Assembly (NCBI GenBank): GCA_001871445.1
Contig: MNVD01000011.1
Location: forward strand, 29,382-93,381
Direction of reading: 5' to 3'
DNA from: Candidatus Magasanikbacteria bacterium CG1_02_41_34
GTDB lineage: Bacteria > Patescibacteriota > Patescibacteriia > Magasanikbacterales > UBA922
Length of the DNA stretch: 64,000 bases
Made by a program: the position numbers and the translations under genes. Shown one piece after another: positions 2,987 to 20,777 of the stretch. How positions within the stretch are numbered: position 1 is the stretch's first letter; each line of letters starts with the position of its first letter. The notes under the pieces are model-generated. The model was not told the origin of the DNA. It saw nothing but the letters and a program-made list of their open reading frames with translations, and searched no databases.

Positions 2987-3101
2987 ATGTTCGTGTTCAC
3001 CTTTTGAGGATAATACAAATTTGCCTAAATTAACAGAAAAATATACCATATGTTCGTGTGTTTGTCAAGTGTGTTGATGCGTTGGTAAAGATAATTAAAA
3101 A

Positions 3102-3125: not shown

Positions 3126-3138
3126 ATAGATTTTCTTG

Positions 3139-6371: not shown

Positions 6372-7718
6372 GTGTCAAGAATACTCAAAGCACAACTCAA
6401 AAAAGTAAAAAACCTTGAAGGACGTATCAATCCTGACCAGGCTTGGGTTGCGCGTACAAAAACATCATTACTCCAAACAATTGCTTCTGAGACTATAGTA
6501 GCTACAACACCTGTCCGTGCAATGGTAGGAAAAAAACGAGCAGAACAGATGCTTCAAGGGTTTCAAGCTTTTTTCCCAAAAAATATTTTTTCACAAGCAA
6601 GACCAGTATTTATTTCATTGCTGGTTTTTTTGCTTGCTGGGAGTGGGTGGATTGCAAGCGCAAGTGCATCAGAAAGTCTTCCTGGTGACACGTTATGGCA
6701 AGTAAAATTGGCATCAGAAAAAACACAGATTGTTCTTGCAAGCATTACCGGTAATGATAAAAAGAACGTTGCTCTCCAGCTCAAATTTGCAGCACGACGA
6801 GCTGACGAGATCAAGATTGTTACTGGCGAAGAAAAATTTGCACCTGAAGAAAAAGCAAAGCGTGCAGGAGAGGGACTCAAGCAGTTGCAAGAAAACATTG
6901 CTTCTGTAGATACTGCTGTTCATTCTGATGAACAAAAAGAAGATATTAGTAAAGGCGCAAAAGAACTCAATGAGAGTACGGCACAAATCAGTGCTACATT
7001 AAAAGAAGTTGCAAGTACAGTGCAGGATGGTGATGCAGATGCCACACTTACCAAACAAGTCGCCGCAGCACAGCAAGCTGTCGATGAAGTGGGTATCAAT
7101 GCTGTGAAGGTCGCCGTAGAAGGTGCGCAAAATGATGTAGAGCGCACTGCTGCTCAAGTGTTGGTAGAAGAAAAAATAGTCTCAGTGCTCTCTGATGCTG
7201 ATGGTGCGTTGTCCAAAAATGCAGAAGCAAAGGCGCTCATCGAGAATGTAGATGTATCTGAAGGAACTGACGCTACTCACGTTTCTTCTACGATTGCGTT
7301 GAATGACGCACAAGCATCGAGTACTACTGTTACAACAGTAACGAGTGTTTTCGGCACAACAAGTACTGTTAAAGGAATTTCTACTGAAGGAGATGGTGTA
7401 GTTCCTTCACAGACAACAAAACAAATGGTTACTGCCATCCTGGAGCAAGCAGACAAAACGTCTGAGGCAGTGCAAGCGCAAGTTGATCAAATAAAGCAGC
7501 TTATTTCAAACAATGATTTGACTGGGGCACTCGAAAAAGCAAAAGAATTGAAACGAACAACTGTTGTTTCCACACTTCAGACATTGGAAATAAACAAAAC
7601 TGTAGAGCAAGTGACGAATGCTACGCAAACAAAAACATCTGTTGTTCCAAGTAGTAGTGTCACACCACAAAAAACAATTCTTGTACCGATAATATCTACA
7701 AGTACTAGTAAGATCTAG
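6372..7718 (+). CDS. Putative anti-sigma factor or sigma-associated membrane protein. It has a DUF5667-like extracytoplasmic domain and a coiled-coil region rich in Ala, Thr and Ser.
   Basis: A GTG start lies 11 nt after the sigma stop, which suggests translational coupling. There is a short cytoplasmic N-terminus and then a TM helix, 'PVFISLLVFLLAGSGWIASASA'. The segment 'LPGDTLWQVKLASEKTQIVLASITG' resembles DUF5667. A long Ala/Glu/Lys coiled-coil region follows, then a Thr/Ser-rich tail. Confidence 0.45.
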   Translation: MSRILKAQLKKVKNLEGRINPDQAWVARTKTSLLQTIASETIVATTPVRAMVGKKRAEQMLQGFQAFFPKNIFSQARPVFISLLVFLLAGSGWIASASASESLPGDTLWQVKLASEKTQIVLASITGNDKKNVALQLKFAARRADEIKIVTGEEKFAPEEKAKRAGEGLKQLQENIASVDTAVHSDEQKEDISKGAKELNESTAQISATLKEVASTVQDGDADATLTKQVAAAQQAVDEVGINAVKVAVEGAQNDVERTAAQVLVEEKIVSVLSDADGALSKNAEAKALIENVDVSEGTDATHVSSTIALNDAQASSTTVTTVTSVFGTTSTVKGISTEGDGVVPSQTTKQMVTAILEQADKTSEAVQAQVDQIKQLISNNDLTGALEKAKELKRTTVVSTLQTLEINKTVEQVTNATQTKTSVVPSSSVTPQKTILVPIISTSTSKI

Positions 7719-8052
7719 TAACGCACCATGTGTGTACGTGTGTGTTGCTCTAAGATGAAGAGGGGCAGTACACACGTGTACGATATGTGCACGGACGTTA
7801 ATTCAACTTATGACGTGTTACTGTATGGCTTTTCCTTCGACCTCTGGTCGGGGGAGGCTGCCATACAGTAGGCACCTTCTTGATTTGTTCACCCATATTG
7901 GGTGAGATCAAGAACCCATAATACAAAGGTCGAGTCTTCCCAGGCGTATCATGGCATGTACTCTGGGTACATAACACTTCATCTTTATTGACCGTCCTTG
8001 CTATCGCTATGGATGAGCGCAACAAAGGTGGAGCATATATATAAATATTATT

Positions 8053-11000
8053 ATGACTGATGTAATTAACCTTACAAAAAAGGCATTTACATGGTCTGTC
8101 GTTGTAATGACGATAGCCTGGAGTATTGGTCTTTCTGCACTCGCAGCACCTCTTGCTGCAAATGCTGCAGATTGTCCTACACTCGAAGCTGGAGATCTTT
8201 TTAAAGTAAAAGGAAACACAGCTGTATATCTCCTCGACGCAGACATGAAACGTTTGTACTTCCCACATTCTGATGTATATCACACATGGTTTAGTGATTT
8301 CTCAGGTGTTGTAGAAATTGATTCTACATGTGTAAGTGCATACCCAAACGCTGTAAACCCATCTGGTGTTGACTACCGACCAGGCTCACGCCTTGTAAAA
8401 GTAGTTATCTCACCTGAAGTATATGCTGTAGGACCTGGCAATATGCGCCATCTCCTCGGTAGTGAAGAAGAAGCCTCATCACTTTATGGTGCTAACTGGG
8501 CTTCTCTTGTTCGTGATGTTCACGACTTCCACTGGCCAAACTATACGACTGGTGCAGAAGTTAATGGACTTATGAATGGTATGCTTGTAAAGCGTGCTGA
8601 TACTTCTGATGTGACTACTGTGTACGTTGTACAAGATGGAAAACTCCATACTGTAGACGGAACACTTCCTGCTTTTGTAAAAGCAGATGTCCGCACTGTA
8701 GCATCAACACTCGTTGACGCTCTTGAATTGAGCGTTGACTCTGTAACAGCTGCTTCACTTACTGCTGACCCTTCACAGGGAAGTGGAAGTGGAACTCCTG
8801 GAACACCCGTAGTAACTGGTGGAAACGTTTCTGTTTCTCTCGCTGCTGAAACTCCAGGATCTACTGATATTCTTTCTGACAGTGGTTCTGATTACAACCA
8901 AGCAAACATTCCTTTCACCGCTGTACGATTTACAGCTGGAAGTGACGCTGTTGTTGTAAAGACAGTCAAGTTCACGCGAACTGGTATTGCTTCAGACTCT
9001 GATCTTGGAAATTTGTATCTTTATGATGGAGACGCTCGACTTGCAGAATATACAAGCTTTAATGCTAAAGTTGTAACATTCTCAAATAGCACTGGTCTCT
9101 TTACTGTCCCTGCAAACAGCAGTAAGACCGTTATGCTCCGTGGTGACCTTGCAAAATCTGCAGTCACTGGTGGCAAAAAGATCGGATTTGAAGTAGCTAG
9201 CTCTGATCATGTTGTGATCAATGGTGGTAGTGTTACTGGATCATTTCCTGTAGCTGGTAGTCAAATGGCTACTGCACAGGTAACTGATCTTGGTGATCTA
9301 TATCTCACTGGATACACAACATTCCCTGCAACGGTAAAAGCTGATGAAGCTGGAAAAGAACTCTGGCGCATGACCTTGAACGCTGCAGAACAAGACATGG
9401 AACTTCGTTACATGAAATTGACCATGATTGGTACAATTTCTACGAGCGATGTTCAAAACTTGAAACTTGAAGTTGGTGGTGCCCAAGTTGGTGCTACTGC
9501 AAACATTTCTGACGACAGAACTGTTATCTTTGATCTTTCAAGTGCTCCTATTGCTGTGAATGCTGGACAAAGTAAGATTGTTGTCCTTCGTGGTGATATG
9601 ATGGGTGGATCTGGACGTGTATTCAAGTTTAGTGTACAACGTCAAAATGATCTCAAAGCATACGACACAGAATATGGTGTCTATGTAAATCCAACTATCA
9701 CAACTGCTGCTACTTCATTTGGAGTTGTAGAGCCAGAAACTGGAAATGGTACTGACGTAGACAGTGGAACACTCACTATTGGTGTTGCTACTGATTCACC
9801 TACCGGAAGCACTGTTGACGGTGGTACAGGTGTCACCCTAGCTAAATTTACCTTTGATGCCTCTGGTGAAAGTGTAAAGGTAACCAGTTTGCCTGTCTAT
9901 TGTACTGGATCTGACAATACTGACATTCTTGCAAATGTAAAAGTTTTGCTTAATGGCTCACAAGTCGGTTCTACGGATGCTGCAATGACATGTTCTGGTG
10001 TTGGTGGAGTAAACAGCTTTACCTTTGGCAACACATTTGTTGTTGACAGAGATACTGATTCTGTTGTAACTATCGTAGCTGATACTACAGATGCTACGAT
10101 CGTAAATGCTGCTACTCTTTCTGTAAGTCTCAATACTGGTGATACTGGTAATGGGCAAGGTCAAACAACATTGACCGGTATCACTACTACAGGATTGACT
10201 GCTCGTACTCTTACGGTACGAAGTGGAGTCGTGACTGTTTCAGAAAACTCAGCATTTGGTGACAAAACAGCTACAAACCCAACTGGTACTGTAAATGCAG
10301 CTGGTGCACGAATTGCATCATTTGTTATTACAGCTGGTTCTGGTGAAGCTGCTGATGTAACACAAATTTCACTTGCTGATGATGCTACGACAGGATTGGC
10401 ATCAAACTACCAAAAGCTCATGTTGATGCATGATGGTGTACAGATTGGTACAACCGTCAATACACTCAACACAACTGCAAGCACTTACTCATTTACTCCA
10501 TCTACTGCTATCCGTATCGCTGCTGGACAACAGTATGTAGTAGATGTCTATGCTGACATCAAGAGTAGTGCTGCTGATGCTGGTGAAGCTGCATATGCAC
10601 CTGTTCGTCTCGCTGCTACTGCAGTTACTGCGACAGGTGTGAACACAACATCAAATATTAGCTCAACAAACAGTGCTACATCTCTTCAGAATGCATATAT
10701 CGCTGCAAGTGGTAACTTGACTGTTGCTATTTCTGGTGATACTGCTGAAGCTGCTCAAATCGTTCTTGGATCTACAGCTGTAGAACTTGGAACATTCGAA
10801 TTGACAGCTGATGCTGCTGAAAGAATCAACGTTACAGATCTCGTTGTATCTGTTTCGTCTACTGCTGGATACCAAGGTACACTCCGAAACCTCCGCCTCT
10901 ATAAGGACGGTGTTGCATTTGGACCAGCCGTGAATCTTCCAACAGGAGCTGCATCTACTGGAACCTACTACAATGCGACCTTCTCTGGTCTTGCATTGAC

Positions 11001-11718
11001 AGTAGAAAAGAACAGTACTGCAGTAATCACTGTAAAAGCAGACGTTACTACTTTCACCAATGGTGGTGCAAATGGAGACGTAAATGGTTCATTCTTCGCT
11101 GCAATGTTGTCTAACGTTGGAAGTGGAAGTGAACCTGTAACTGCTGTCGGTGAATCATCTGGTGCAAGTATTACCGGTGCACAACTTGACATGGGTACTT
11201 CCCCTGATCTCAATCAAGTCGCAAATGAGATGGTTGCATACCGATCGAAAATTACTGTAGCATTCGCAGGTGACTCACCTAGTGGATCATCTGTTGGAGC
11301 AAGTGCTCAGACTATCGCGAAGTTCGTCGTATCAAACTCAAGCAATGTAGGAAACTACAAAGCAACAGTGAACACAATGAACTTTGCTATTAGCAATACA
11401 GGAATCTCAAATACAGCAACACGAACGATGAATGTATATAAAGATTCTGTTTCTGCTAGCAACTTGCTTGCTACGACCACTGCTGGTTCAGGCACCTTGA
11501 ACTTCGCTGATACTAGTATCAGCACGTTTACAGATGTTGATATCACAGCTGGAAGCTCAAAGACCTTCGTTGTAACACTTGATACAAGTGATGCTGGTAC
11601 TGATGACAAATTGTCTATCGGATTGGCTCAAGGAGATATCGTTTGGTCTGATGACGCTGTAAACGTCATCACCGAAGTAGATGGTCTCCCTCTCGTATCC
11701 AAGACACTTACCTACTAA
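8053..11718 (+). CDS. Giant secreted surface protein with tandem repeats, rich in Thr, Ser, Ala and Gly. It is a candidate S-layer or adhesin glycoprotein.
   Basis: Signal peptide 'KKAFTWSVVVMTIAWSIGLSALAAPLAANA|AD'. About 1221 aa with almost no charged or aromatic core. It contains recurring ~100-120 aa modules. Examples are 'TAVRFTAGSDAVVVKTVKFTRTG...LYLYDGDARL...VTFSN...VPANSSKTVMLRGDL', 'MELRYMKLTMIGTIS...LKLEVGGAQVG...VIFDLS...VNAGQSKIVVLRGDM' and 'LRNLRLYKDGVAFG...ATFSGLALTVEKNSTAVITVKADV'. No stop codon interrupts 3.6 kb. Confidence 0.7.
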   Translation: MTDVINLTKKAFTWSVVVMTIAWSIGLSALAAPLAANAADCPTLEAGDLFKVKGNTAVYLLDADMKRLYFPHSDVYHTWFSDFSGVVEIDSTCVSAYPNAVNPSGVDYRPGSRLVKVVISPEVYAVGPGNMRHLLGSEEEASSLYGANWASLVRDVHDFHWPNYTTGAEVNGLMNGMLVKRADTSDVTTVYVVQDGKLHTVDGTLPAFVKADVRTVASTLVDALELSVDSVTAASLTADPSQGSGSGTPGTPVVTGGNVSVSLAAETPGSTDILSDSGSDYNQANIPFTAVRFTAGSDAVVVKTVKFTRTGIASDSDLGNLYLYDGDARLAEYTSFNAKVVTFSNSTGLFTVPANSSKTVMLRGDLAKSAVTGGKKIGFEVASSDHVVINGGSVTGSFPVAGSQMATAQVTDLGDLYLTGYTTFPATVKADEAGKELWRMTLNAAEQDMELRYMKLTMIGTISTSDVQNLKLEVGGAQVGATANISDDRTVIFDLSSAPIAVNAGQSKIVVLRGDMMGGSGRVFKFSVQRQNDLKAYDTEYGVYVNPTITTAATSFGVVEPETGNGTDVDSGTLTIGVATDSPTGSTVDGGTGVTLAKFTFDASGESVKVTSLPVYCTGSDNTDILANVKVLLNGSQVGSTDAAMTCSGVGGVNSFTFGNTFVVDRDTDSVVTIVADTTDATIVNAATLSVSLNTGDTGNGQGQTTLTGITTTGLTARTLTVRSGVVTVSENSAFGDKTATNPTGTVNAAGARIASFVITAGSGEAADVTQISLADDATTGLASNYQKLMLMHDGVQIGTTVNTLNTTASTYSFTPSTAIRIAAGQQYVVDVYADIKSSAADAGEAAYAPVRLAATAVTATGVNTTSNISSTNSATSLQNAYIAASGNLTVAISGDTAEAAQIVLGSTAVELGTFELTADAAERINVTDLVVSVSSTAGYQGTLRNLRLYKDGVAFGPAVNLPTGAASTGTYYNATFSGLALTVEKNSTAVITVKADVTTFTNGGANGDVNGSFFAAMLSNVGSGSEPVTAVGESSGASITGAQLDMGTSPDLNQVANEMVAYRSKITVAFAGDSPSGSSVGASAQTIAKFVVSNSSNVGNYKATVNTMNFAISNTGISNTATRTMNVYKDSVSASNLLATTTAGSGTLNFADTSISTFTDVDITAGSSKTFVVTLDTSDAGTDDKLSIGLAQGDIVWSDDAVNVITEVDGLPLVSKTLTY

Positions 11719-11770
11719 TCGTCTAAACAATTCTATTGTTTAGCATAGTAGTTCTCTTCTCGAAGAGATC

Positions 11771-11799
11771 AAACACCCCCGGAATTCGGGGGTGTTTTG
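11771..11799 (+). terminator. Strong rho-independent terminator after the giant surface-protein gene
   Basis: The sequence 'acacccccg gaatt cgggggtgt' gives a 9-bp GC-rich stem with a 5-nt loop. A T-run, 'tttt', follows at 11795-11798. Confidence 0.8.
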
Positions 11800-11858
11800 A
11801 TCTATCCATGTTACTTGCTTCGGAGGCGTCTATCGGCTATACTATTGTTCATATGTAT

Positions 11859-14099
11859 ATGAATAAAATAACAAAGATCATTGTAGGAGGGCTCTTTGTT
11901 TCTGTTATTTTTCCTCTTCTCTTCACCCCTCAGACTATGTTTCCTTGGGGGTATGGGAAAGAGTTGTTTTTTGTATTTCTCATTGCATGTTTAGGGTTGC
12001 TTTCTCTACCGATATTGTGGAAGTACAAAAATACTACAACAGCTATGATGAGTCATATCACCATGGTTGATGTATTTTTTTTGTTGTTTATATGTTCATT
12101 TTTTCTCAGTACGTTCCTAGGTTTTGAGCCTGTTCGTAGTTTTTGGGGAGATCAAAGTAGAGGAGGGGGAGCGCTATTGTGGGGACAACTCGGAGTGTAT
12201 TACGTATTCCTTCGTATATTTTTTCAAACCAAAAAACAATGGAGGTACTTTGGCATGGGTATTATAGGGGTAGGACTAGTAGGAAGCCTTATTGCATGGC
12301 TAGGTGCGTATACGTCAGCATTTTCTGGCGTTATTATGAAAAGTAGTCATCTCAGTGGACTCGCAGGCAATCCTATATTTTTTGCATCGTCATTGATACC
12401 ACCCTTATATGTTTCACTTTCTTTTCTCTTTGTAGAGACAGAAAAGTGGAAACGTTACATATTCGGTGGTGTTGCAGGTATTTTGCTCATTACTCTGCTT
12501 GCGACACAAGTGCGAGGAGCATTTCTTGGGTTGCTCGTGTCTCTTGTCAGTATGGGGGTATATTTTACGATTGCAAAAAAAGCGTTTGTGAAAAAAAGAA
12601 GGATTTCCGTTTTGCTTTCTTTAGTTGTAAGTAGTGTATTGATTGTGGGGTTAATTTTTTGGAATACTCGAACGAGCGTACTTGCAGAAGTCTCACCAAC
12701 ACTGTCTCGTATGTTTACCATATCTACAGAGACAGGCACTGGACAAACGCGTCTTATGGCATGGAAGATCGCATTGAGGGGAGCTGTAGAGCATCCTGTC
12801 TTAGGATGGGGGCCAGAGTCATTTCAATTTATATTTGACACCTATTACAACCCTGCATTTTTAAGATTTTCTTTTTCGGAAACAGTGTGGGATCGTCCAC
12901 ATAATTTTTTTCTTTCAATTTTGACAGGACAAGGGCTTGTGGGGCTGTCACTCTATCTGTTTTTTTTGGCTTTGTTGGCAGGGGCCTTATTCAAAAAAAT
13001 TCGACAGGAGGTGAACCCTGCACAGGTGTGGTTTCTTCTGTTTCTTTTTGGTGGGATTGTGAACTATGTAGTCCAAAGTTTTTTTGGTGTGGAAGTATTC
13101 CATTCCCTCATTGTGTGGGTTGCATTTTTGGCATATGTATCTTTTGTTATTGGATCGAACACACAGAGCGCCTCATGGTTTCAAGGATCTCATCATAAAT
13201 CTATCGTACTTGTTGGTGCTGGTATTCTTCTCCTTTGTACCCCGTGGATTTTGTTCACAGTCCCACGATTGTATCAATCGAGTGTTGCTATGGCTTCAAG
13301 TAGAGATATCGCTCGATCAGGAAACTCTGAAGGGTGGAAGGAATCAGTGGAAAAAGTAGTAGGGATAGATGCTCCTATACAGTGGGAGCAAGCAAGATAT
13401 ATTGTACAGGATATTTCTTATCTTGATGGAGCAAAACTATTGAAAAGCAAAGATCTCAGTCTAATTGCCCCCAAACTTTTGAATATATTTGAAACTGATA
13501 TATCTCGAAATCCAAAATCATATCAATATTATTTTTGGACTGCAGAGCTCTATGGATTTATGGGTGAATATATGGATTCGCAGTACTTGGAAAAAAATAA
13601 AGAATTTTTGCTTAGGGCAGGAGAGCATAGCCCTACACAGCAACGTATTCCACTTCTTTTGGCAAAAAATGATATCCTAAACGGAAACGTTGATGGTGGT
13701 GTTGAGAGGCTTCATCAATTGTTGGATACAGATCCAAGCATAGCTGAGGTCCGTTGGTTTTATGGCCTTGCGCTTATTGAACAGGGTAATAAAGATAGTG
13801 GGCTGGAAGAACTTGAAGCAAGTGGTTCTTTTGGTTTTACTGTTGATTCTAATATCGTATATGTGATAGATTTGTATGCACAAGATGAACAATATGAACA
13901 TATTATTCCATTGTATCAATTGTTGATACAGCGTCATCCTGGCGAGAGTACGTGGTATGCCAGAATTGCCGCAACATACGCAGCAATGGGACAAAGAGAT
14001 AATGTGATAGAAGCTATCAATACTGCTGTAGAGTTAGATCCTTCCTTAAAAACAGAAGCCATGGAATTTTTACAGTCTCAAGGAATTTCCTCCTTTTGA
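11859..14099 (+). CDS. Wzy_C-domain polytopic membrane protein with a C-terminal TPR domain. It belongs to the O-antigen ligase / O-oligosaccharyltransferase / polymerase family.
   Basis: At least 10 predicted TM helices. Family motifs are 'QVRGAFLGLLVSL', 'HPVLGWGPESFQFIF' and 'RPHNFFLSILTGQGLVGL'. The third matches the H-N-x-x-L-E...G-x-x-G signature seen in WaaL and PglL. About 300 C-terminal residues look like TPR ('AATYAAMGQRDNVIEAINTAVELDPSL'). The ATG at 11859 is preferred over the ORF-track start at 11736, which would overlap the upstream terminator. Confidence 0.65.
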   Translation: MNKITKIIVGGLFVSVIFPLLFTPQTMFPWGYGKELFFVFLIACLGLLSLPILWKYKNTTTAMMSHITMVDVFFLLFICSFFLSTFLGFEPVRSFWGDQSRGGGALLWGQLGVYYVFLRIFFQTKKQWRYFGMGIIGVGLVGSLIAWLGAYTSAFSGVIMKSSHLSGLAGNPIFFASSLIPPLYVSLSFLFVETEKWKRYIFGGVAGILLITLLATQVRGAFLGLLVSLVSMGVYFTIAKKAFVKKRRISVLLSLVVSSVLIVGLIFWNTRTSVLAEVSPTLSRMFTISTETGTGQTRLMAWKIALRGAVEHPVLGWGPESFQFIFDTYYNPAFLRFSFSETVWDRPHNFFLSILTGQGLVGLSLYLFFLALLAGALFKKIRQEVNPAQVWFLLFLFGGIVNYVVQSFFGVEVFHSLIVWVAFLAYVSFVIGSNTQSASWFQGSHHKSIVLVGAGILLLCTPWILFTVPRLYQSSVAMASSRDIARSGNSEGWKESVEKVVGIDAPIQWEQARYIVQDISYLDGAKLLKSKDLSLIAPKLLNIFETDISRNPKSYQYYFWTAELYGFMGEYMDSQYLEKNKEFLLRAGEHSPTQQRIPLLLAKNDILNGNVDGGVERLHQLLDTDPSIAEVRWFYGLALIEQGNKDSGLEELEASGSFGFTVDSNIVYVIDLYAQDEQYEHIIPLYQLLIQRHPGESTWYARIAATYAAMGQRDNVIEAINTAVELDPSLKTEAMEFLQSQGISSF

Positions 14100-14119
14100 T
14101 ACATGTTATCTATACTTAT

Positions 14120-14752
14120 ATGAACAAAAAAAAATATATCATTTTTATCCTTATCACTGTACTTTTCGTTGCCGGAGGTGCTTACTTGTTTGTACAACGT
14201 TCTCATTCTTCGCTGCAGAACGAACAGTATTATAGTAAGACATCATACATCGAAGCACTACACGCATTTTCATTGGAGCATCCTGAACTGAGTGAGTTTA
14301 CGACCCTTGTAGACGAAGAAGAAGCAAAAATTGCAGCAGCTCCGTCAAATACAGAGGGATATCTGAGTCTTGGGTTGGCATGGAAAAGTCTTGCAGACAG
14401 GGCAGGAGACCCTCCAAACATGTTTTATGAAGCAGCATTTGAAGTATATAAGAGAGGTATAGAACTTACGGATAGAAGGGATACAACGTTTTTAAAAAAT
14501 GCAGCAAACATGGCGGAGTTTCAAAAGGATTTTGATACCTCTGAAACATTATTGCAAGAAGCTATTGTAGCAACTCCGGGTGATGCTGATCTATATATTC
14601 GGTTAGCAGACGTATATACATATCTTATGAAGAAGCCGACACAAGAAATTATAGATTTTTTGGATACTGGCATTGAAATTTTGCCAAATGCGACAAGATT
14701 AGAAAATTACAAAAAACGTCTAGAGACGAATGAGCAGAGTAATAATTTATAA
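14120..14752 (+). CDS. Small membrane-anchored TPR-like protein (hypothetical)
   Basis: N-terminal TM helix 'YIIFILITVLFVAGGAYLFV', then a helical repeat region. It lies between the two Wzy_C-TPR paralogs. ATG at 14120. Confidence 0.35.
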   Translation: MNKKKYIIFILITVLFVAGGAYLFVQRSHSSLQNEQYYSKTSYIEALHAFSLEHPELSEFTTLVDEEEAKIAAAPSNTEGYLSLGLAWKSLADRAGDPPNMFYEAAFEVYKRGIELTDRRDTTFLKNAANMAEFQKDFDTSETLLQEAIVATPGDADLYIRLADVYTYLMKKPTQEIIDFLDTGIEILPNATRLENYKKRLETNEQSNNL

Positions 14753-14758
14753 ATTTTC

Positions 14759-16846
14759 ATGTTGTACTCAAAATTGTTAGATAAAACCGAACAAATACTC
14801 CGTTATACAATATTGTGTTTGATCACGACAACTTTTTTAGTCCCATTGATCATGGCTCCATCTTTTATTTTTCCTTTTATTGTACCAAAAATACTGGCAT
14901 TTCGCACAATTGTTATTTTGATGAGTGTTACGTATGTCATGTTGCTCTGGAAATATCCAAAAAAATATGCACCTGGAAAAAACATTGTTACTATAAGCGT
15001 ATTCCTTTTTTTGTTCAGTTTTGCTATATCTACATTTACTGGTGTAGATTGGTATAGAAGTCTTTGGGACAATCATGAACGAATGTTGGGACTTTTTACC
15101 TTTGTTCATTATGTTATTTATTTTTTCGTGTTGTCGAGTGTCATACAGTCGAAGGAAGAATGGATACAATTGTTTCGTTTTTTTCTCGGTGCAGGGATGC
15201 TGGTAGTTATTATTGGCGTATGGCAAAAATCAATCAATCCTGAACTTTTGCTCAATAGAGGTGCTTTTCGTGTCTCTTCTACACTTGGAAATGCTATCTA
15301 CTTAAGTGGATATGGCCTTTTTTTGGCTACAATCGGTGCATTACTTGCATATTGGGAGAATGTAAACATGTGGCGTATTTATGCCGCAATTGGGGCTTTT
15401 CTTGGTATAGTAGGTATTTTTTTAGGAGGAACACGAGGAACCTTGCTTGGGTTTCTCGCTGGCTTGGGAATTGGTCTTGCTTGGTTTATATTCTATGCAA
15501 AAGCAAATAAAAGAATGAAGAAATTTGTATTGCTGGGTACAAGTTGTTTGTTGATGTTTTTTGTGTCTTTGTTCTTTTTTCGTAGTTCGGATGTCGTGCG
15601 TCACATGCCATTGATTGGTCGTCTTGCCGAAACATCATTGTCGTCAGGGACTGCGGAAACACGTATTATGGCGTGGCAGATTGCTTTTGAAGCGTGGAAA
15701 GATAAACCATTTTTTGGGTGGGGACCAAATAATTTTTATTATGCATTTAACGAATTCTACAACCCAACGTTTCTCGAGCATGGATATCAAGAGACATGGT
15801 TTGATAATGCACATAATATTGTCATGAATACACTCACGACACAGGGTGCTTTTGGACTGGCAGTGTATATTATCCTATTTGGTGGAGCAATATATGCTCT
15901 GATAAAAATGAAAGATGACGATATACTTGGCGGGCTGGTAAGTGTTATCATTGTCAGTTTTCTGATAGCACATTTTATTCACAATGTATTCGTATTCGAA
16001 AATCCTACGTCATATTTGTACTTTTTTACGATACTAGGTTTTATCGCCAGTTCGTACAAAACCTTTTTAAAGAAAACAAAAACCGTGAAAGTTAAAAACG
16101 TTGTATCGCAACACCTTGGGGTAGGAAAAATGTCTATACTTTTGTTTGTTGCACTACTTTTTGTGTTTTCAACAGAAATAAATCCAGCTCGAGCAAATAA
16201 GACCATTGCTCTAGCTATCAAATCTGTCAGTACAGACCCTGAACTAAGTATTGCTCAGTATCGTAAGGCAACATCAATCCCAAGTCCTCATATTGATGAT
16301 ATTAGGAATGATATGTCCCGCATTTATTTACAGGCAATACCTTTTTTGATTGATCAGCATCAAAATGAAATAGCAAATACATATTTTGCAGAAGCAAAAA
16401 AGAGTATGGAAGAAAATCTTCTTTTGCATCCACGAGATATTCGTGTGCATATGCAGTTGGCTCAGGTGCTTTTGCAGGGAGCGCGGCTAAAACAGGATAT
16501 TTCCTATATTCAGCAGGCAAAACAGATACTGCGTATTGCATTGGTCTATTCTCCCAAACGTCAACAGTTAGTTTTTCAATATACTCAAATATTGGATATT
16601 CTTACTGAATATGATGAGGCCTTATCTCTTCTAAGACAAGTTGTAGACGACGACCCTCATATTGTAGAAAGTTGGGCACGGTTGATTTATATGTATGGAA
16701 GAGCAGGAGAAAAGGACTTGGCTGTACAGGTATATCAAGAAGCATTAACAGCTGGTATTGATTTTAGTGGTGATTTTTCAAATACGGTAAATTCAGTAAT
16801 ATCGGCATCTACATCATCGACATCCAATATTCATTCAGTAGAGTAA
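14759..16846 (+). CDS. Second Wzy_C-domain membrane protein with a C-terminal TPR domain, paralogous to 11859..14099
   Basis: Same motif set as the first paralog: 'GTRGTLLGFLAGL', 'DKPFFGWGPNNFYYAF' and 'NAHNIVMNTLTTQGAFGL'. The TPR-like tail reads 'VDDDPHIVESWARLIYMYGRAGEKDLAVQVYQEAL'. Confidence 0.65.
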   Translation: MLYSKLLDKTEQILRYTILCLITTTFLVPLIMAPSFIFPFIVPKILAFRTIVILMSVTYVMLLWKYPKKYAPGKNIVTISVFLFLFSFAISTFTGVDWYRSLWDNHERMLGLFTFVHYVIYFFVLSSVIQSKEEWIQLFRFFLGAGMLVVIIGVWQKSINPELLLNRGAFRVSSTLGNAIYLSGYGLFLATIGALLAYWENVNMWRIYAAIGAFLGIVGIFLGGTRGTLLGFLAGLGIGLAWFIFYAKANKRMKKFVLLGTSCLLMFFVSLFFFRSSDVVRHMPLIGRLAETSLSSGTAETRIMAWQIAFEAWKDKPFFGWGPNNFYYAFNEFYNPTFLEHGYQETWFDNAHNIVMNTLTTQGAFGLAVYIILFGGAIYALIKMKDDDILGGLVSVIIVSFLIAHFIHNVFVFENPTSYLYFFTILGFIASSYKTFLKKTKTVKVKNVVSQHLGVGKMSILLFVALLFVFSTEINPARANKTIALAIKSVSTDPELSIAQYRKATSIPSPHIDDIRNDMSRIYLQAIPFLIDQHQNEIANTYFAEAKKSMEENLLLHPRDIRVHMQLAQVLLQGARLKQDISYIQQAKQILRIALVYSPKRQQLVFQYTQILDILTEYDEALSLLRQVVDDDPHIVESWARLIYMYGRAGEKDLAVQVYQEALTAGIDFSGDFSNTVNSVISASTSSTSNIHSVE

Positions 16847-16856
16847 CGGTGGTAGT

Positions 16857-17645
16857 ATGCCAAAAATAAGTGTTCTATTATGCGTGTATAACGGTGATGA
16901 CTATGTACGCGGTGCTCTTGATAGTATTCTTTCTCAGACGTATAGTGATTTTGAGTGTGTTATTATTGATGACGCTTCCTCAGACACAACACCACACATA
17001 CTACGTGAGTATGCATCAAAAGATAATAGGATACATATACATACAAATGATAAAAATATGGGACTCACAGCATCTCTCCAAGATGGGCTGTCATATTGCA
17101 ATGGAAAGTATATAGCAAGAATGGATGTCGATGATATTGCAAGACGTGATAGGTTCGAAAAGCAATATGCATTTATGGAAGAACATCCTGACGTGGCGTT
17201 ATGTGGTTCCTTTGCAACTGTTATCGATGAAAAAGAAAGTACTATTGGAAAAAAGATATTTCCGACATCCTCAGTAGATATAAAAAAAAGACTTTTATTT
17301 AACAATCAGTTTGTTCACTCTACTCTTTTTTTTATAAAAGAAAAAATAGTAGACATTGGAGGGTATGATGTTTTTTTCAAAAAAAGTCAGGATTATGATT
17401 TGGTATTCCGTGTTGGATCTGTATACACCGTTGCAAATATTCCTGAATATCTTGTATCATGGCGCTTGGGCTCTCGGAGCATTTCTTGGCAGAGTAGGGG
17501 ACAAGAAATGTATGCGCTTCGGGCACGATGGAACGCAATTACAAGATATGGATATCCAAAAATCAATGGAATATACCACATTGTGGTACGAGCAATTTGG
17601 TTGTGTGTACCACTTTCGTTAAAAAGAAAGCGATATGTTCGTTAG
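16857..17645 (+). CDS. GT2-family glycosyltransferase
   Basis: 'ISVLLCVYNGDDYVRGALDSILSQTYSDFECVIIDDASSDTT', followed by a DxD-type motif, 'ARMDVDD'. Confidence 0.8.
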   Translation: MPKISVLLCVYNGDDYVRGALDSILSQTYSDFECVIIDDASSDTTPHILREYASKDNRIHIHTNDKNMGLTASLQDGLSYCNGKYIARMDVDDIARRDRFEKQYAFMEEHPDVALCGSFATVIDEKESTIGKKIFPTSSVDIKKRLLFNNQFVHSTLFFIKEKIVDIGGYDVFFKKSQDYDLVFRVGSVYTVANIPEYLVSWRLGSRSISWQSRGQEMYALRARWNAITRYGYPKINGIYHIVVRAIWLCVPLSLKRKRYVR

Positions 17646-18585
17646 TCTTATTATTCCCACAATTGTAGAAAGAAAAAATGAACTTGTTCGTTTATTGTCT
17701 TCCGTGGCATCTCAAAAAAAAATACCTGATGAAGTTATTATTGTTATGCAGGGATTTGGTAATAATTATGTATCAGCTGTAGCATCTATACAGCAATCGT
17801 TTCCAATGCTTACATTCGTATGTATTCAGAGTAGTATCCGCTCCCTTACAAAAGCTCGAAATGAGGGGGTGTGTAAAAGTAGGGGAGATATTATTGCATT
17901 TTCAGATGATGATATTATATTGGAGCCCAACTATATTGAAAAAATGATTCATTTTTTTGAAACATATCCCAAGGCACTTGGTGTTCAGGGACTTATTACA
18001 GACTTTGTAGAGGGACACACAAAAAAAATTGGGGGAAATTCATTTGTGTATGCCTGTTACAATGTGTTTGCCAAAATATTCTTATTGAATAATAGTAGTA
18101 CCAAAAACAAGTTATTACTATCTGGACGTAGTCAATATGCGACTCATGTAAAAACTGTGACACCCTGTGAATGGCTCAGTGGTATCGGAGCGTATAGAAA
18201 ATCTGTATTTACAGAGTTTACGTTTGACGAATCACTAGGTGGGTATGCACTCGGTGAGGACAAATTGTTTTCATATCCAATAAATCAAACATATCCAGGT
18301 GTATTGTATATTGACCCTTCAATTCGTTGCAAACATGTGTATGGAGAACAAGGTCGACCTAAAAATGAAGAATTGGTTCGTATGAAGGTGCAAAATATTC
18401 ACTATATCTGGAATAAACTGATGTCAGATCGTGGGTTTCTTGCCAAAATTGCGTTTTGGTGGGCGAATATAGGAGATTTCATCAGCGTGTTTTTTGCATC
18501 TATACTGCGTGTATATTCTTTTCGTTTTTTTTTGCTTCATGTGAGAGCCTATTTTGCACTTATTGGACATACGTATGATACCTAA
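17635..18585 (+). CDS. GT2-like glycosyltransferase
   Basis: 'VSLIIPTIVERKNELVRLLSSVASQ...DEVIIVMQG' and 'IAFSDDDIILEPNY'. It overlaps the previous gene by 11 nt. Confidence 0.6.
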   Translation: MFVSLIIPTIVERKNELVRLLSSVASQKKIPDEVIIVMQGFGNNYVSAVASIQQSFPMLTFVCIQSSIRSLTKARNEGVCKSRGDIIAFSDDDIILEPNYIEKMIHFFETYPKALGVQGLITDFVEGHTKKIGGNSFVYACYNVFAKIFLLNNSSTKNKLLLSGRSQYATHVKTVTPCEWLSGIGAYRKSVFTEFTFDESLGGYALGEDKLFSYPINQTYPGVLYIDPSIRCKHVYGEQGRPKNEELVRMKVQNIHYIWNKLMSDRGFLAKIAFWWANIGDFISVFFASILRVYSFRFFLLHVRAYFALIGHTYDT

Positions 18586-19717
18586 AAAACAAAATAAACA
18601 ATTAGTTCTTTTTTTCACGTATGGTGTATCCCTGGCTATTTGGGAAAAAGCAGGGACCCTGGGGCGTGATGCTCGTCTATATCAAGAATTACAAAAGCAT
18701 AATATAGACGTGCTATTTGTAACATACGGTAAAAGCAGAAGAGAAAAAGAATTGGCTGATAGATTGGGGATCTCTATTTTTTATAACAAGTGGCATCTTC
18801 CAACATTCTTATACTATGTGTTTCTTCCGGTATTGTTACTATTTCAATCTTACAAAAATATAGGTTGGATTAAATCCCATCAGTATATAGGTGTTTTTCC
18901 TGCATATGTATATGCAAGATTGAAAAAAGTCTCATATGTCGCTCGCGGAGGCTATCTTCCTACCTATTTTTTTGCAAAAGAAAAAAGATATAGTCTTCGG
19001 CGTTGGCTGAAATATATCTTTGTGAGTATTGACGAATGGATAGTGGTCAAGAAGGCAACTGTAATTTGTCTTCCAAGCAAAGAGGAAGAAGAGTATTTAC
19101 AGAGGAAATATACGACATGTTGTCCCAACATTGTCTATCAACCAAACTGGGTTGATACTGATACTTTTTTTCCTCTACCTCTTGCAAATAAAAAGAAAGA
19201 TATCCTTTTTGTTGGTCGTTTGGAATCTCAAAAAAGACCACTGCTTTTTTTGGATGCATATAAAAAAATAGGGAAGGGAGTAAGCGGAACGCTTGTGGGA
19301 ACAGGCTCTCTGGCAAGCACCGTATCGGATATTATTGCAGACAATGATCTTTCTCTTCATTTTTTACATAATCGATTGCCGAATAATGATTTGATTCCTA
19401 TTTATCAATCGCATAAAGTATATGTGCTTACTTCTTCCTATGAGGGAGGGTCTGCAAAAACTGTATTAGAAGCGATGGCATGTGGTGTTCCTGTTGTTGT
19501 TACAAATGGATTTGGTCTTGCTGCCACGGTTACTGATGGATATGATGGATTTGTCTGTCCGCCAGATCCTGACATCTTGGCAAAAAAAATTGACCTGCTC
19601 CTCACGAATGAAAGTGTATATACTCGTATGAGTGAGCATGCTCGGTCTACAAGTATACAAAAATTTAGTATGCAGGCCGTTTTGAAAAATGAACTTGCAT
19701 GGTTACACAATTATTGA
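18575..19717 (+). CDS. GT4-family glycosyltransferase
   Basis: C-terminal motif 'EGGSAKTVLEAMACGVPVVVTNGFGLAATVTDGYDGFV'. The ATG at 18575 is preferred over the TTG at 18554. It overlaps the upstream gene by 11 nt. Confidence 0.7.
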   Translation: MIPKKQNKQLVLFFTYGVSLAIWEKAGTLGRDARLYQELQKHNIDVLFVTYGKSRREKELADRLGISIFYNKWHLPTFLYYVFLPVLLLFQSYKNIGWIKSHQYIGVFPAYVYARLKKVSYVARGGYLPTYFFAKEKRYSLRRWLKYIFVSIDEWIVVKKATVICLPSKEEEEYLQRKYTTCCPNIVYQPNWVDTDTFFPLPLANKKKDILFVGRLESQKRPLLFLDAYKKIGKGVSGTLVGTGSLASTVSDIIADNDLSLHFLHNRLPNNDLIPIYQSHKVYVLTSSYEGGSAKTVLEAMACGVPVVVTNGFGLAATVTDGYDGFVCPPDPDILAKKIDLLLTNESVYTRMSEHARSTSIQKFSMQAVLKNELAWLHNY

Positions 19718-19754: not shown

Positions 19755-20777
19755 ATGAAAAAAGCACTTATTACAGGTATTACCGGTCAAGATGGCTCTT
19801 ATCTTGCTGATTTTCTTTTGGAGAAGGGATACGAAGTACATGGTATTATCCGTCGTTCGAGTAGTTTCAATACTGAACGAATTGACCATATATACAAAGA
19901 TCCTCATGAAAAAGGTGTGAAGATGTTTTTGCATTATGGAGATTTGGCAGACGCGAGTAATATCGAACGTATTTTGAAGAAAATCAAGCCAGATGAAGTA
20001 TATAATCTTGGAGCACAAAGTCATGTTCGTGTAAGTTTTGATATCCCTGCCTATACTGGAGATGTTGTCGGGCTAGGGACACTGCGATTACTTGAGGCAA
20101 TTAGAAATTCAGGTATTGATACAAAATTTTATCAAGCGTCTAGTTCTGAAATGTTTGGAAAAGTTCAGGAAACTCCACAAAAAGAAACAACGCCATTTTA
20201 TCCACGTTCACCATATGGATGTGCAAAAGTTTTTGCCTATTGGACGACGATAAATTATCGTGAGAGTTATGGAATGTTCGCATGTAATGGAATTCTTTTT
20301 AATCATGAATCACCTCGACGTGGAGGAACATTTGTTACAAAAAAGATTGTAGACGGTCTCATACACATAAAAGAAGGAAAACAAGACACCCTCTTTTTAG
20401 GGAACCTTGATGCAAAACGTGACTGGGGATACGCAAAAGAGTATGTAGAAGCCATGTGGCTTATGTTACAACAAGATACTCCTGACGATTTTGTCATAGC
20501 CACAGGAGAGACACATAGTCCACGTGAGTTTGTAGAAGAAGCCGCAGGATTGCTGGGTTTTGATATTGAATGGAGAGGAGATGGACTCAAAGAAAAAGGT
20601 ATTGATAAAAATAGTGGAAAGACGATTATTGAAATTGATCCAAAATATTTTCGTCCAGCTGAAGTAGATTTACTTATTGGGGACGGGACAAAAGCAAAGA
20701 ATATGCTCAATTGGGAACCAAAAGTGAAGTTTAAAGAGTTGGTTAAAATTATGGTGGAGGAAGGAATCGGGAAATAG
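19755..20777 (+). CDS. gmd: GDP-mannose 4,6-dehydratase
   Basis: '[47 protein letters not shown]'. Also '[10 protein letters not shown]' (the YxxxK motif) and 'NHESPRRG'. Confidence 0.9.

Follow-up and report, generated by a model that had tools for sequence, protein, structure and literature searches.

Two diverged Wzy_C-TPR proteins flanking a small membrane protein beside a large secreted protein in Candidatus Magasanikbacteria: putative en bloc glycan transferases

Among the closest described counterparts of this locus are the S-layer glycosylation (slg) loci of Geobacillus stearothermophilus (WsaA and WsaB) and Paenibacillus alvei (WsfB), in which genes for a surface protein, a Wzy_C O-OTase, a small TPR protein and glycan biosynthesis are clustered, and G+C content is lower in the central region. 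The Geobacillus slg pathway uses an ABC transporter. In that species, the gene for the 168-aa TPR protein WsaA immediately precedes that for the O-OTase WsaB, and C-terminal TPR motifs have been reported for both WsfB and PglL (PMC2943079). Genes for pglL usually adjoin that of their target (21/31; PMC3643930).

The window analyzed here, a 64,000-nt stretch from a Candidatus Magasanikbacteria genome (Patescibacteria, Candidate Phyla Radiation), has the same kinds of genes clustered, as far as the likeness can be drawn from descriptions of the slg loci, and the same central drop in G+C (0.28–0.35 vs. 0.40–0.43). Translation gives three contiguous plus-strand ORFs, separated by 20 and 6 nt: A (11859–14099; 746 aa, or 748 aa from the GenBank start two codons upstream at 11853), B (14120–14752; 210 aa from its ATG) and C (14759–16846; 695 aa). 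For B, initiation at a TTG at 14096 would extend the protein to 218 aa, but the MNKKK start at the 14120 ATG is favored because it is supported by orthologue alignment. The window differs from the Geobacillus cluster in having a Wzx-like flippase rather than an ABC transporter, and from slg loci more generally in encoding two TPR-bearing enzymes plus a small TPR protein, and a surface protein (here called BIG) with no recognized S-layer domain. The main contextual clue is this 1221-aa protein upstream, together with a sigma/anti-sigma pair: the conserved cassette order is ECF sigma, anti-sigma, BIG, terminator, Wzy_C-TPR gene(s) and Wzx-dependent glycan cluster.

Our preferred explanation, held tentatively and at slightly less than an even chance, is that A and C are en bloc glycan transferases glycosylating BIG, with C the core enzyme and A plus B accessory, which would make the locus a Patescibacterial equivalent of slg. 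A Bac_transf enzyme encoded in the window would start the glycan, glycosyltransferases and methyltransferases would extend it, and the Wzx-like protein would flip it, after which A or C would move the finished undecaprenyl-pyrophosphate-linked glycan en bloc on the outer side of the membrane. A 13th transmembrane (TM) helix would place the C-terminal TPR solenoid of each enzyme outside the cell, able to hold a polypeptide acceptor, preferably BIG, encoded immediately upstream. C would be the core transferase; A and B may provide specificity for a second glycan or site or, with lower probability, polymerization. B would assist A as an extracytoplasmic, WsaA-like protein rather than linking A to C.

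A and C are clearly diverged paralogues, as an earlier note on this DNA proposed. Their homology is far above chance (BLASTP, 26% identity over ~690 aligned residues covering both membrane and TPR parts, E = 2e-45), both score well over the Pfam Wzy_C gathering cut-off of 31.7 bits (A, 71.5 bits; C, 71.4 bits), and each has several C-terminal Pfam TPR matches. Two of the three motifs said to unite them, GWGP..F and HN-x5-LT-x-QG-xx-GL, are indeed common to both; the third, RGxFLG, is exact in A only (RGAFLG; RGTLLG in C). To speak of a duplication is misleading, however: the two fall into separate clades (neighbor-joining bootstrap 170/200 and 200/200), and their split is ancient, preceding the radiation of these lineages. 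Both are also bona fide and apparently active members of the Wzy_C (WaaL/PglL/Wzy) superfamily: the catalytic Arg/Arg/His set is present without exception in A-type (38/38; R219/R298/H348 in A) and C-type sequences (14/14; R226/R302/H352 in C), and R298 and H348 (A numbering) in every class examined. Since this is the catalytic set of WaaL and PglL, neither is likely to be a dead paralogue.

The AF2 model of A (pLDDT 87.6, pTM 0.84) has 12 core helices, then a helix at 445–486 corresponding to the 13th TM, then an all-helical repeat domain. WaaL (7tpg_B) is its sole membrane-protein match among the 50 Foldseek matches listed, with a TM-score of 0.63 normalized to target length and 18% identity; the TPR part matches the TPR domains of OGT and SPY. 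The TM12–TM13 linker is K/R-rich (e.g., KTFLKKTKTVKVK in C), and from the topology we infer that the TPR tails of both A and C probably face outward. In the eukaryotic protein-modifying glycosyltransferases TMTC1-4 and OGT/SPINDLY a catalytic domain is likewise fused to a TPR solenoid that recruits polypeptides, but this is an analogy only, their catalytic folds and donors being unrelated and their catalytic domains without homology to A and C.

WaaL (Cupriavidus metallidurans, PDB 7TPG/7TPJ; also E. coli) shares with A and C the Wzy_C domain and the positions of Arg/Arg/His, with the A model the 12-TM fold, and, with what is proposed for both, a lipid-pyrophosphate-linked glycan donor used on the outer side of the membrane. 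Unlike A and C, it is only ~400 aa long, with neither the extra TM helix nor a TPR domain, and its acceptor is lipid A-core. Patescibacteria have, to our knowledge, no outer membrane or LPS, so this acceptor should be absent here. PglL-type O-OTases (Neisseria PglL, 9rmk; PilO/TfpO, PglS) also have a Wzy_C core. The PglL residues named as functionally important, R224, R298 and H349 (PMC3643930), correspond in the alignment to R219, R298 and H348 of A; P313, G316 and G318 are also common to A and PglL, and an E-x-P motif to PglL (LEYP) and C-type enzymes (FENP). As with pglL, a candidate target gene adjoins the transferase genes, but here an Ig-array surface protein would take the place of pilin, in a monoderm-like CPR host with two paralogues and a TM-TPR partner. 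Profile searches matched WaaL at 2.6e-11, 2.7e-9 and 5.3e-7, and 9rmk chain A, a 610-aa “Oligosaccharyltransferase” whose residue numbering agrees with the published N. meningitidis PglL positions, at 1.9e-7. The profiles scored better with WaaL than with this PglL-like chain, which was not reached by the separate profiles of A and C, and the PglL-specific Pfam models PglL_A and Wzy_C_2 had no match in either protein. Sequence, profile and fold comparisons leave A and C indistinguishable as ligase, O-OTase or polymerase, in agreement with published experience that sequence alone does not tell these apart (PMC3643930). Of the earlier suggestion that both are O-OTases, the part that stands is that the context fits protein O-glycosylation, because a giant secreted protein is encoded immediately 5′ of the three genes and a cluster for a lipid-linked glycan follows them; these comparisons do not separate it from a ligase plus a polymerase.

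BIG (8053–11718, plus strand), the presumed acceptor, is a secreted protein with a signal peptide, a conserved N-terminal alpha/beta domain, a G/S/T/P-rich low-complexity linker, ~8–9 Ig-like beta-sandwich domains and a C-terminal motif, LPLxxKTLTY. It is acidic, with 12.7% T and 10.1% S. Its AF2 model (pLDDT 85.8) matched generic Ig arrays only in Foldseek, and Pfam and NCBIfam scans gave no match, including to any recognized S-layer or anchoring domain. It has more than 255 homologues; all of those with a source name are Patescibacterial and “hypothetical.” BIG immediately precedes A in 27/28 loci. Of 40 C-anchored loci, 27 have BIG upstream of C, and in 10 of these the two genes are direct neighbors; the other 13 lack BIG within 10 kb, three of them encoding another large secreted protein in its place. 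In Woesebacteria, no Wzy_C gene neighbors a distant homologue of BIG. C itself has 682 homologues, the best 120 of them at 41–51% identity. From these distributions, C is the widespread core enzyme across Magasanikbacteria, often directly after BIG, and A and B are an accessory pair that a minority lineage carries as an insertion between BIG and C. Co-variation was evaluated by mirror-tree partial correlations controlled for sigma, in a sample of 13 taxa forming two deep groups. Phylogeny is imperfectly controlled, all pairs having p ≤ 0.01; values were highest for the A TPR domain with the BIG Ig array (0.77) and with B (0.74), followed by B with the Ig array (0.68), C membrane part with the BIG N-terminal domain (0.57), A TPR domain with the latter (0.41), and the C TPR domain (0.28–0.30; 0.30 with B).

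Downstream of C, and tightly packed or overlapping with it, are three plus-strand glycosyltransferase genes (GT2, GT2, GT4 by Pfam; 16857–19717), a trio also found 3′ of C in the closest loci (L001 and L005). They are followed by a GDP-mannose 4,6-dehydratase (19755–20777, plus strand; Pfam 1.5e-153), the first gene of a nucleotide-sugar/glycosyltransferase/methyltransferase cluster extending to ~50 kb; gmd/fcl-like or other sugar-nucleotide genes are directly 3′ of C at nine C-anchored loci inspected, as assigned by eye from N-terminal sequence, without a domain scan. The window contains at least 15 glycosyltransferase, methyltransferase or sugar-nucleotide genes, a Wzx-like flippase (Polysacc_synt, PF01943, 1.6e-8, above cut-off; 27228–28790, plus strand) and an initiating phosphoglycosyl transferase (Bac_transf, WbaP-like, PF02397, 3.4e-63; 50340–51890, minus strand). 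Pfam scans found no Wzz, ABC exporter or LCP protein in the window, and no multi-TM polymerase candidate besides A and C was seen among the ORFs scanned.

The flippase and initiator indicate a Wzx-dependent cluster, and with no exporter or other polymerase candidate found, one possibility is a classical Wzx/Wzy division of labor: one paralogue would be a Wzy-type polymerase elongating the flipped repeat unit, and the other a ligase or O-OTase moving the polymer onto its acceptor. A is the more plausible polymerase, in which case B would serve as its non-homologous co-polymerase or chain-length helper, although C could be the polymerase instead. We consider this unlikely, if by no means negligible. 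A second Wzy_C-TPR gene is present in 22/23 A-anchored loci, suggesting two non-redundant activities, and the occurrence of C alone beside BIG in many relatives fits an obligatory transferase C with an optional polymerase module A plus B. The A–B linkage is strict (B directly downstream of A in 30/32 loci), like the functional link of Wzy to Wzz. Wzy O-antigen/EPS polymerases are of the same superfamily, some with Wzy_C, and share the Wzx-dependent pathway logic; Wzz resembles B in being a membrane partner whose extracytoplasmic domain is helical. Wzz has two TM segments, however, where B has one and TPR-like repeats, and the window is without a Wzz/PCP domain. Both A and C, unlike Wzy, keep the ligase-type His along with the rest of the Arg/Arg/His set typical of ligases and a common loop architecture, and both match WaaL over the same region. 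TPR tails have been reported on O-OTases but, as far as we know, not on characterized Wzy enzymes, and co-variation of the A TPR domain with the Ig array would be unexpected for an enzyme handling lipid-linked glycan only.

Gene adjacency could also stem from co-regulation or polymer-mediated anchoring rather than an enzyme–substrate relation. In this rather improbable alternative, A and C would build or ligate a cell-wall-associated polysaccharide, similar to a secondary cell wall polymer, to which BIG would be anchored through its conserved N-terminal domain, and their linkage to BIG would reflect an anchor–ligand relation or shared ECF control. BIG has no TM or sortase anchor, its N-terminal domain is conserved and co-varies with the membrane part of C, and C is also found without BIG, heading glycan clusters; genes for Gram-positive S-layer proteins are often flanked by those for anchoring polymers. 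Nor was an LCP ligase seen in the window. Against this reading, we know of no Wzy_C enzyme that ligates polymers to peptidoglycan. Polypeptides are the typical ligands of TPR domains, that of A co-varies with the Ig array and not the N-terminal domain, and there is precedent for O-OTase genes adjacent to those of their targets.

B has one N-terminal hydrophobic segment (residues 4–28) preceded by KKK, predicting a small protein whose N terminus is cytoplasmic and whose TPR-like domain, beyond the single TM segment, is extracytoplasmic. Its earlier description as a TM-anchored helical-repeat protein is reasonable as to the single TM segment; the TPR assignment is borderline because its matches fall below threshold (TPR_14, 23.0 bits with a cut-off of 23.5; TPR_11 also sub-threshold). 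The B family has 191 representatives at E ≤ 1e-3, mostly of 190–255 aa. B is not a derivative of the TPR domains of A or C. An obligate heteromeric assembly of all three proteins, in which B would serve as a scaffold bridging both enzymes, now seems very unlikely. The three are contiguous here and in 12/23 A-anchored loci, and their TPR-type surfaces would, given the topology proposed above, be on the same side of the membrane. The scaffold suggested in the earlier note is weakened, however, by the constancy with which B accompanies A, and not C: about half of A-anchored loci have unrelated genes between B and C (10/22) or another Wzy_C paralogue class instead, and most C-type genes are without A and B, adjoining the surface-protein gene in most relatives. 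B co-varies with the TPR domain of A far more than with that of C, and neither A nor C is a degenerate, non-catalytic partner.

The ECF sigma factor gene (5747–6361, plus strand; Pfam Sigma70_r2/r4_2/ECF) is upstream of BIG in 23/25 A-anchored loci. The only TGTAAC-N16-CGTC site in the window, an ECF-type promoter motif, is at 5770–5795; it is conserved ~33 nt upstream of the sigma ATG in relatives, and its position suggests that the true sigma start is probably just past 5800. Between sigma and BIG, a position conserved at related loci, is a putative anti-sigma or membrane sensor (6372–7718, plus strand) with one TM segment (residues 72–99) and a weak, sub-cut-off Pfam match to DUF5667 (E = 7.6e-5). 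The BIG 5′ leader contains a candidate structured RNA (7916–7954, plus strand) without an Rfam match: P1 pairs 7916–7924 with 7946–7954, P2 pairs 7934–7937 with 7942–7945, and the loop AAAGGTCGA occupies 7925–7933. These pairings were assigned by eye because a constrained minimum-energy fold gave an alternative structure in the window; the same geometry is found in 25/30 distinct loci (22/3000 shuffles), with 4–6 canonical pair types at each pair position. Between BIG and A is an intrinsic-terminator-like GC hairpin followed by a T run (11767–11802, plus strand; dG = −26.6 kcal/mol), and nearly all related loci have an equivalent hairpin, of different sequence, no more than ~100 nt from the stop codon of BIG.

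The three open reading frames of the earlier note are all present: A (11859-14099, + strand, 746 aa), B (14120-14752, + strand; 210 aa, or 218 aa from an upstream TTG) and C (14759-16846, + strand, 695 aa). A and C are membrane proteins matching Pfam Wzy_C (PF04932) at 71.5 and 71.4 bits against a gathering cut-off of 31.7, and both have C-terminal TPR matches in Pfam. Their description as clearly diverged agrees with an identity of 26% across ~690 aligned residues (E = 2e-45). The motif trio they were said to share needs some correction: GWGP..F and HN-x5-LT-x-QG-xx-GL occur in both, but RGxFLG is exact in A only, C having RGTLLG. In Candidatus Magasanikbacteria bacterium CG1_02_41_34 (Patescibacteria/CPR), a protein annotated as hypothetical matches A at 100% identity; A has ~37 close, full-length homologues at 28-54% identity, beyond which identity is ~25%; C has 682 homologues, the best 120 of them at 41-51% identity. 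Named relatives are called only “tetratricopeptide repeat protein” or “O-antigen ligase family protein.” In GenBank, C is annotated as a 635-aa protein (P0092) whose start lies ~60 codons too far downstream: the omitted stretch (14759-14938) encodes residues that do not vary among C orthologues (P29, P34, FIFPF, K44), along with a conserved first TM helix.

The fold was modelled for A, with which C aligns over its full length. In the AlphaFold2 model (pLDDT 87.6, pTM 0.84), a core of twelve helices includes an extracytoplasmic loop (residues 272-349) and is followed by a long helix (445-486) and all-helical repeats to residue 740; the 12-TM fold is WaaL-like, TM9 and TM10 being joined by a large extracytoplasmic loop. 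WaaL (7tpg_B; E = 7e-5, TM-score 0.63 normalised to target length) is the sole membrane protein among the 50 Foldseek matches to the PDB listed for this model, the others being TPR proteins such as OGT and SPINDLY. Single-sequence PDB searches were insufficient (the C membrane domain gave no match and the full-length protein matched TPR proteins only), so the sequence matches come from profiles: a pooled A and C membrane-domain profile reaches WaaL at 2.6e-11 and 9rmk (“Oligosaccharyltransferase,” 610-aa chain) at 1.9e-7, the latter not being reached by separate A and C profiles. The residue numbering of 9rmk is the published numbering of Neisseria meningitidis PglL, and in its alignment R219, R298 and H348 of A fall on PglL R224, R298 and H349, equivalents of E. 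coli WaaL R215, R288 and H338 that are important for function (PMC3643930). The corresponding set in C is R226/R302/H352. No A-type (38/38) or C-type (14/14) sequence deviates from this set, which is also kept in all but two of 16 aligned proteins of an “x” class of further Wzy_C-TPR paralogues; R298 and H348 are invariant across all classes examined, and R219 differs only in those two of the 16 and in one other relative. A and C are intact WaaL/PglL-type enzymes; given this invariance both look active, and the idea that one of the pair is a dead pseudo-enzyme was rejected.

Assignment to a particular family within this group is harder. G316 and G318 (PMC3643930) were considered as discriminators between PglL and WaaL and rejected, C. 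metallidurans WaaL also having G-x-G there. The PglL-specific Pfam models PglL_A (PF15864) and Wzy_C_2 (PF11846) match neither A nor C at E <= 0.01, and NCBIfam returned only IctB, MamA and PrsT matches, all far below threshold. Classical WaaL has lipid A-core as its acceptor; Patescibacteria are not known to make LPS, so that such an acceptor should be absent, which argues against membership there too, and no LPS genes were seen within the 64-kb window. On the failed PglL motif test and the lack of the classical WaaL acceptor, A and C are filed here under the Wzy_C superfamily only.

The termini of WaaL are cytoplasmic, and in A and C the linker between helices 12 and 13 is K/R-rich (KTFLKKTKTVKVK in C, for example); helix 13 would thus take the TPR domain outside, and we infer that it lies there beside the catalytic loop. 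The characterization of B as a small TM-anchored TPR protein stands in its first part, with one N-terminal hydrophobic segment, and is borderline in its second, the TPR matches falling just under threshold (TPR_14, 23.0 bits vs. a cut-off of 23.5; TPR_11, 19.2 vs. 26.8); the B-like protein of a related locus, L047, has clearer ones. KKK precedes the TM segment, so that B should be N-in with an external repeat domain. The B family is small (191 representatives at E <= 1e-3 among 1.8 billion), its members mostly being 190-255 aa. The suggestion that B is a detached A or C TPR domain was rejected: the B-family HMM matches neither protein, and BLASTP gave a single 47-residue match (E = 0.001).

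The surroundings suggest a glycan for these enzymes to act on. Nearly all ORFs of at least 150 aa between ~5.7 and 50 kb are on the + strand. An ECF sigma factor gene (sigma) and then one for a single-TM DUF5667-like protein, the putative anti-sigma, lie upstream of BIG (8053-11718, +), which encodes a 1221-aa secreted Ig-array protein, and of A, B and C. On the 3' side of C are GT2, GT2 and GT4 genes (+ strand), followed by GDP-mannose dehydratase and related enzymes with many glycosyltransferases (GTs) and methyltransferases; the cluster also has a DegT aminotransferase, two UDP-sugar dehydrogenases, a Wzx-like flippase (Polysacc_synt; 27228-28790, +) and a Bac_transf initiating phosphoglycosyl transferase (50340-51890, -). 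On the presence of these sugar-nucleotide, GT, flippase and initiating genes, without an ABC exporter, the window encodes a full Wzx-type pathway leading to a flipped, lipid-linked glycan, and A and C are the sole candidates found in it for final extracytoplasmic transfer or polymerization. One possibility is that A with B forms a polymerase and its helper: a flippase and an initiating transferase are present as in Wzy polymerase systems, but a Wzz/PCP partner (PF02706, GNVR) was not found among the scanned window ORFs of at least 150 aa and several smaller ones, and this reading seems rather improbable. Another, less well supported and in our view unlikely, is a polysaccharide-anchor role for the enzymes, without protein glycosylation. 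Neither an ABC exporter nor an LCP ligase was found in the window. A 707-aa YfhO/DUF6044-type GT-C membrane protein followed by a GT2 (43197-46612, +) occupies the lowest-GC part of the window (0.28), and is a pair that we take to resemble the CsbB/YfhO pathway glycosylating teichoic acids outside the membrane. The cluster center as a whole (24000-48000) has a G+C content of 0.28-0.35 vs. 0.40-0.43 in the flanks; low-G+C, strain-specific centers have likewise been described for slg and O-antigen clusters (PMC2943079).

The reading tentatively preferred here is that A and C would transfer the flipped glycan en bloc to BIG, their TPR domains holding the BIG polypeptide during transfer. Besides the expected absence of an LPS acceptor, several known protein O-oligosaccharyltransferases (O-OTases) point this way: WsfB and PglL are reported to have a fused TPR domain, the TPR-less WsaB is preceded by a 168-aa TPR protein, WsaA (PMC2943079), and pglL genes typically adjoin those of their targets (PMC3643930). 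The gene order of the window (BIG, A, B, C, GTs, sugar-nucleotide genes) shares with the published description of the slg loci (WsaA/WsaB, WsfB; PMC2943079) the clustering of a surface-protein gene, a Wzy_C enzyme, a small TPR protein and glycan genes, and it is on gene order that this likeness is drawn. Functionally, the locus would most resemble slg loci and target-adjacent pglL systems, with a core structurally like WaaL.

BIG itself has a signal peptide and is acidic and rich in Thr, Ser, Ala, Val and Gly. Its model (pLDDT 85.8, pTM 0.45) has an N-terminal alpha/beta domain, a disordered linker and ~8-9 Ig-like beta-sandwich domains; despite these repeated domains, BLAST self-comparison found no internal sequence repeats. 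Foldseek returned generic Ig arrays only (integrin legs, mastigoneme and Gram-positive pilins, among others), and neither the whole protein nor four segments of it matched any Pfam or NCBIfam model at E <= 1, those of S-layer and cell-wall anchoring domains (SLH, CWB2, etc.) included. The linker is length-variable in 42/42 aligned family members and mostly G/S/T/P-rich (e.g., DPSQGSGSGTPGTPVV); PglL-type enzymes modify low-complexity segments of this kind. The family has more than 255 members, without a Pfam domain, and the closer orthologues conserve an LPLxxKTLTY-COOH end. Within ~100 nt of the BIG stop codon is a GC-rich hairpin followed by a T run (11767-11802, +, -26.6 kcal/mol), which a consensus terminator scan did not call; an equivalent terminator-like hairpin follows BIG in nearly all related loci (L001-L043), the structure being kept while the sequences are unrelated. 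Such a hairpin would be typical of a strongly expressed structural gene placed before less-expressed enzyme genes.

Comparison with other genomes helps in assigning roles to the paralogues. In an A-anchored scan (one genome per species; 41 loci annotated with the window proteins, with mechanical ORF calls; 37 distinct A loci counted), BIG immediately precedes A in 27/28 loci whose flank is long enough, sigma is upstream in 23/25, and B is directly downstream of A in 30/32. A second Wzy_C-TPR gene is downstream in 22 of 23, and in 12 it adjoins B; C, where displaced, is separated from B by unrelated genes (ArfB-like and secreted-protein), and in loci titled Falkowbacteria, Komeilibacteria and Azambacteria, among others, it is replaced by a different ~750-aa class. 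This sample is limited to loci with A, and a C-anchored scan of metagenome contigs was added (80 loci, typed with class-specific HMMs). Among the 40 loci where 8.4 kb or more precede C, BIG is upstream of it in 27, so that pglL-like adjacency to the presumed substrate gene is seen for both enzymes. C follows BIG directly (<400 nt) in 10 loci; the two are separated by a B-like TPR protein in three (plus L047), by another small single-TM protein in four and by another Wzy_C paralogue in four; BIG is >1.2 kb upstream in four; and the BIG, A, B, C order is found in two (2/40 of all, 2/27 of those with BIG). From these arrangements, C is the core enzyme, marking the junction of surface-protein gene and glycan cluster, and A with B is an accessory insertion in a minority lineage. 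An alternative in which A is dedicated to BIG and C loosely linked was rejected as an artefact of the A-anchored search, BIG-C being commoner than BIG-A-B-C. BIG is absent within reach in 13 of the 40 loci; in three of these, a different 900-1300-aa secreted S/T-rich protein is immediately upstream of C (L071, 5861-9751; L111, 7187-9931; L114, 6260-9880; N-terminus ..YDTNVAHPNIV..), and may be an alternative acceptor. Nine BIG-less loci inspected have gmd/fcl-type or other sugar-nucleotide-like genes directly 3' of C, an assignment made by eye on the N-terminal sequences. In Woesebacteria, a distant BIG homologue lacks any Wzy_C neighbor.

The loci with BIG and C alone bear on the choice between ligase, transferase and polymerase: assuming that the job is not done by a further Wzy_C gene at another place in those genomes, a single enzyme must there deliver the glycan to its final acceptor, and C is most simply a transferase. 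The whole model, in which BIG would be the substrate of both enzymes and A with B a second transferase of different glycan or site specificity, is held at somewhat short of an even chance. An obligate A-B-C complex, related to the earlier proposal of a pair scaffolded by B, is less well supported: B is regularly next to A, and C is found mostly without either, making such a complex very unlikely. The locus is also a hotspot of Wzy_C-TPR paralogue turnover. More classes (~740-780 aa) occur after B or between BIG and C (L008-L018, L028, L037, L053, L087, L088, L118), with three Wzy_C-TPR genes in a row in L028 and L037. A different small single-TM protein replaces B between BIG and C in L054 (9125-9991), L055 (9180-9956) and L058 (9165-9992); in L054 and L058 this protein is rich in Cys, and the two seem to be related.

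Phylogeny does not uphold the duplication as a recent event. In a neighbor-joining tree of membrane domains, A and C form separate clades (170/200 bootstraps for A, allowing two stragglers; 200/200 for C), C grouping with other Patescibacterial Wzy_C proteins with and without TPR; identities average 37% among A sequences, 53% among C sequences and 26% between the two groups, and the split is ancient. A and B evolve faster than C, BIG or sigma: in 13 genomes with all partners, p-distances are 0.66 for A and B, 0.52 for C, 0.50 for BIG and 0.48 for sigma. Partial correlations of distance matrices, controlled for sigma, are 0.77 for the A TPR domain with the BIG Ig array, 0.74 for the A TPR domain with B and 0.68 for B with the Ig array, vs. 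0.28 and 0.30 for the C TPR domain with the Ig array and with B; with few taxa in two deep groups, and every tested pair nominally significant, the co-variation of A and B with BIG is suggestive only. A more specific proposal, which we regard as distinctly doubtful, is that BIG would be the major S-layer-like glycoprotein of Magasanikbacteria-type CPR cells, C a general O-OTase, and A with B a rapidly evolving determinant of specificity, its TPR surfaces recognizing the Ig array of the matching BIG variant. The cassette of sigma, anti-sigma, RNA leader, BIG and Wzy_C-TPR genes would then form a self-contained, envelope-stress-controlled module for building and glycosylating the cell coat.

Some candidate regulatory elements are recognizable. 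An ECF-type promoter, TGTAAC-N16-CGTCTTC (5770-5795, +), lies ~33 nt 5' of a sigma ATG and inside the mechanically called sigma ORF, and in roughly 33/52 loci a motif GTGTAACA-N15-CGTCTTC precedes the sigma ATG by ~33 nt. From this placement, sigma would be autoregulated and its mRNA almost leaderless, and the true start would fall shortly after 5800, not at 5747. An additional ECF promoter in front of BIG or A was considered and rejected, 5770-5795 being the sole such site in the window. A candidate cis-regulatory RNA (7916-7954, +) is ~100-135 nt upstream of the BIG start codon: the internal loop enclosed by helix P1 (7-10 bp) is on the 5' side and ends in an invariant AAGGTCGA, and a hairpin P2 stacks directly onto the 3' arm of P1. 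MAFFT with RNAalifold gave no structure for the BIG leaders, their 3' halves being misaligned, so each sequence was folded separately with constraints and a shuffle control. The geometry is found in 25/30 distinct loci vs. 22/3000 shuffles (0.7%), with 4-6 canonical pair types at each paired position; no Rfam match was found. For the window itself, the constrained minimum-energy fold picked an alternative structure, and the pairings were assigned by eye. The BIG leader also has a perfect 11-nt inverted repeat, TACTGTATGGC-N29-GCCATACAGTA (7820-7870, +), which could be an operator or another RNA hairpin; its GCCATACAG half is upstream of BIG in 25/41 loci.

No description of the sigma/BIG/Wzy_C-TPR cassette was found in the literature searched. 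Several features appear undescribed there: the setting in CPR bacteria, BIG (a family without a Pfam match) as the presumptive target, the fixed framework of ECF sigma, anti-sigma, leader and terminator, and the layering of a core C with accessory A and B (or other paralogues). CPR bacteria are ultra-small, mostly uncultured episymbionts whose cell surface presumably mediates host attachment; to our knowledge, most of the proteins that make up their envelope layers have yet to be assigned. If the model is correct, the locus names a candidate major surface glycoprotein family (BIG), its dedicated glycosylation enzymes, and the elements that regulate them (the ECF sigma promoter, the structured RNA conserved in the leader, and the terminator), giving concrete targets for metaproteomics, cryo-ET labelling and heterologous glyco-engineering, a field in which TPR-tailed O-OTases would be of interest, as their acceptor rules may be new. 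Should the S-layer proposal also hold, no protein O-glycosylation system would have been defined in the Candidate Phyla Radiation before this one, and the locus would exemplify co-evolution of enzyme and substrate with surface variation as the driver. If the model is wrong, the locus would still offer a well-defined natural example in which to ask how ligase, O-OTase and polymerase differ within the Wzy_C superfamily.

Two observations concern the edges of the region. Just past the glycan cluster are genes for a TSP3-repeat protein (509 aa) and then an S8 subtilase (661 aa; 51800-55304, +). On the other side, synteny reaches 25-4932, upstream of sigma, with a GHL15/FG-GAP protein, a GT4 and a 597-aa DUF11 (CLIPPER-like) protein; the same upstream genes recur in the related loci L001, L003 and L047, where a small HTH_17 gene is also upstream of sigma.
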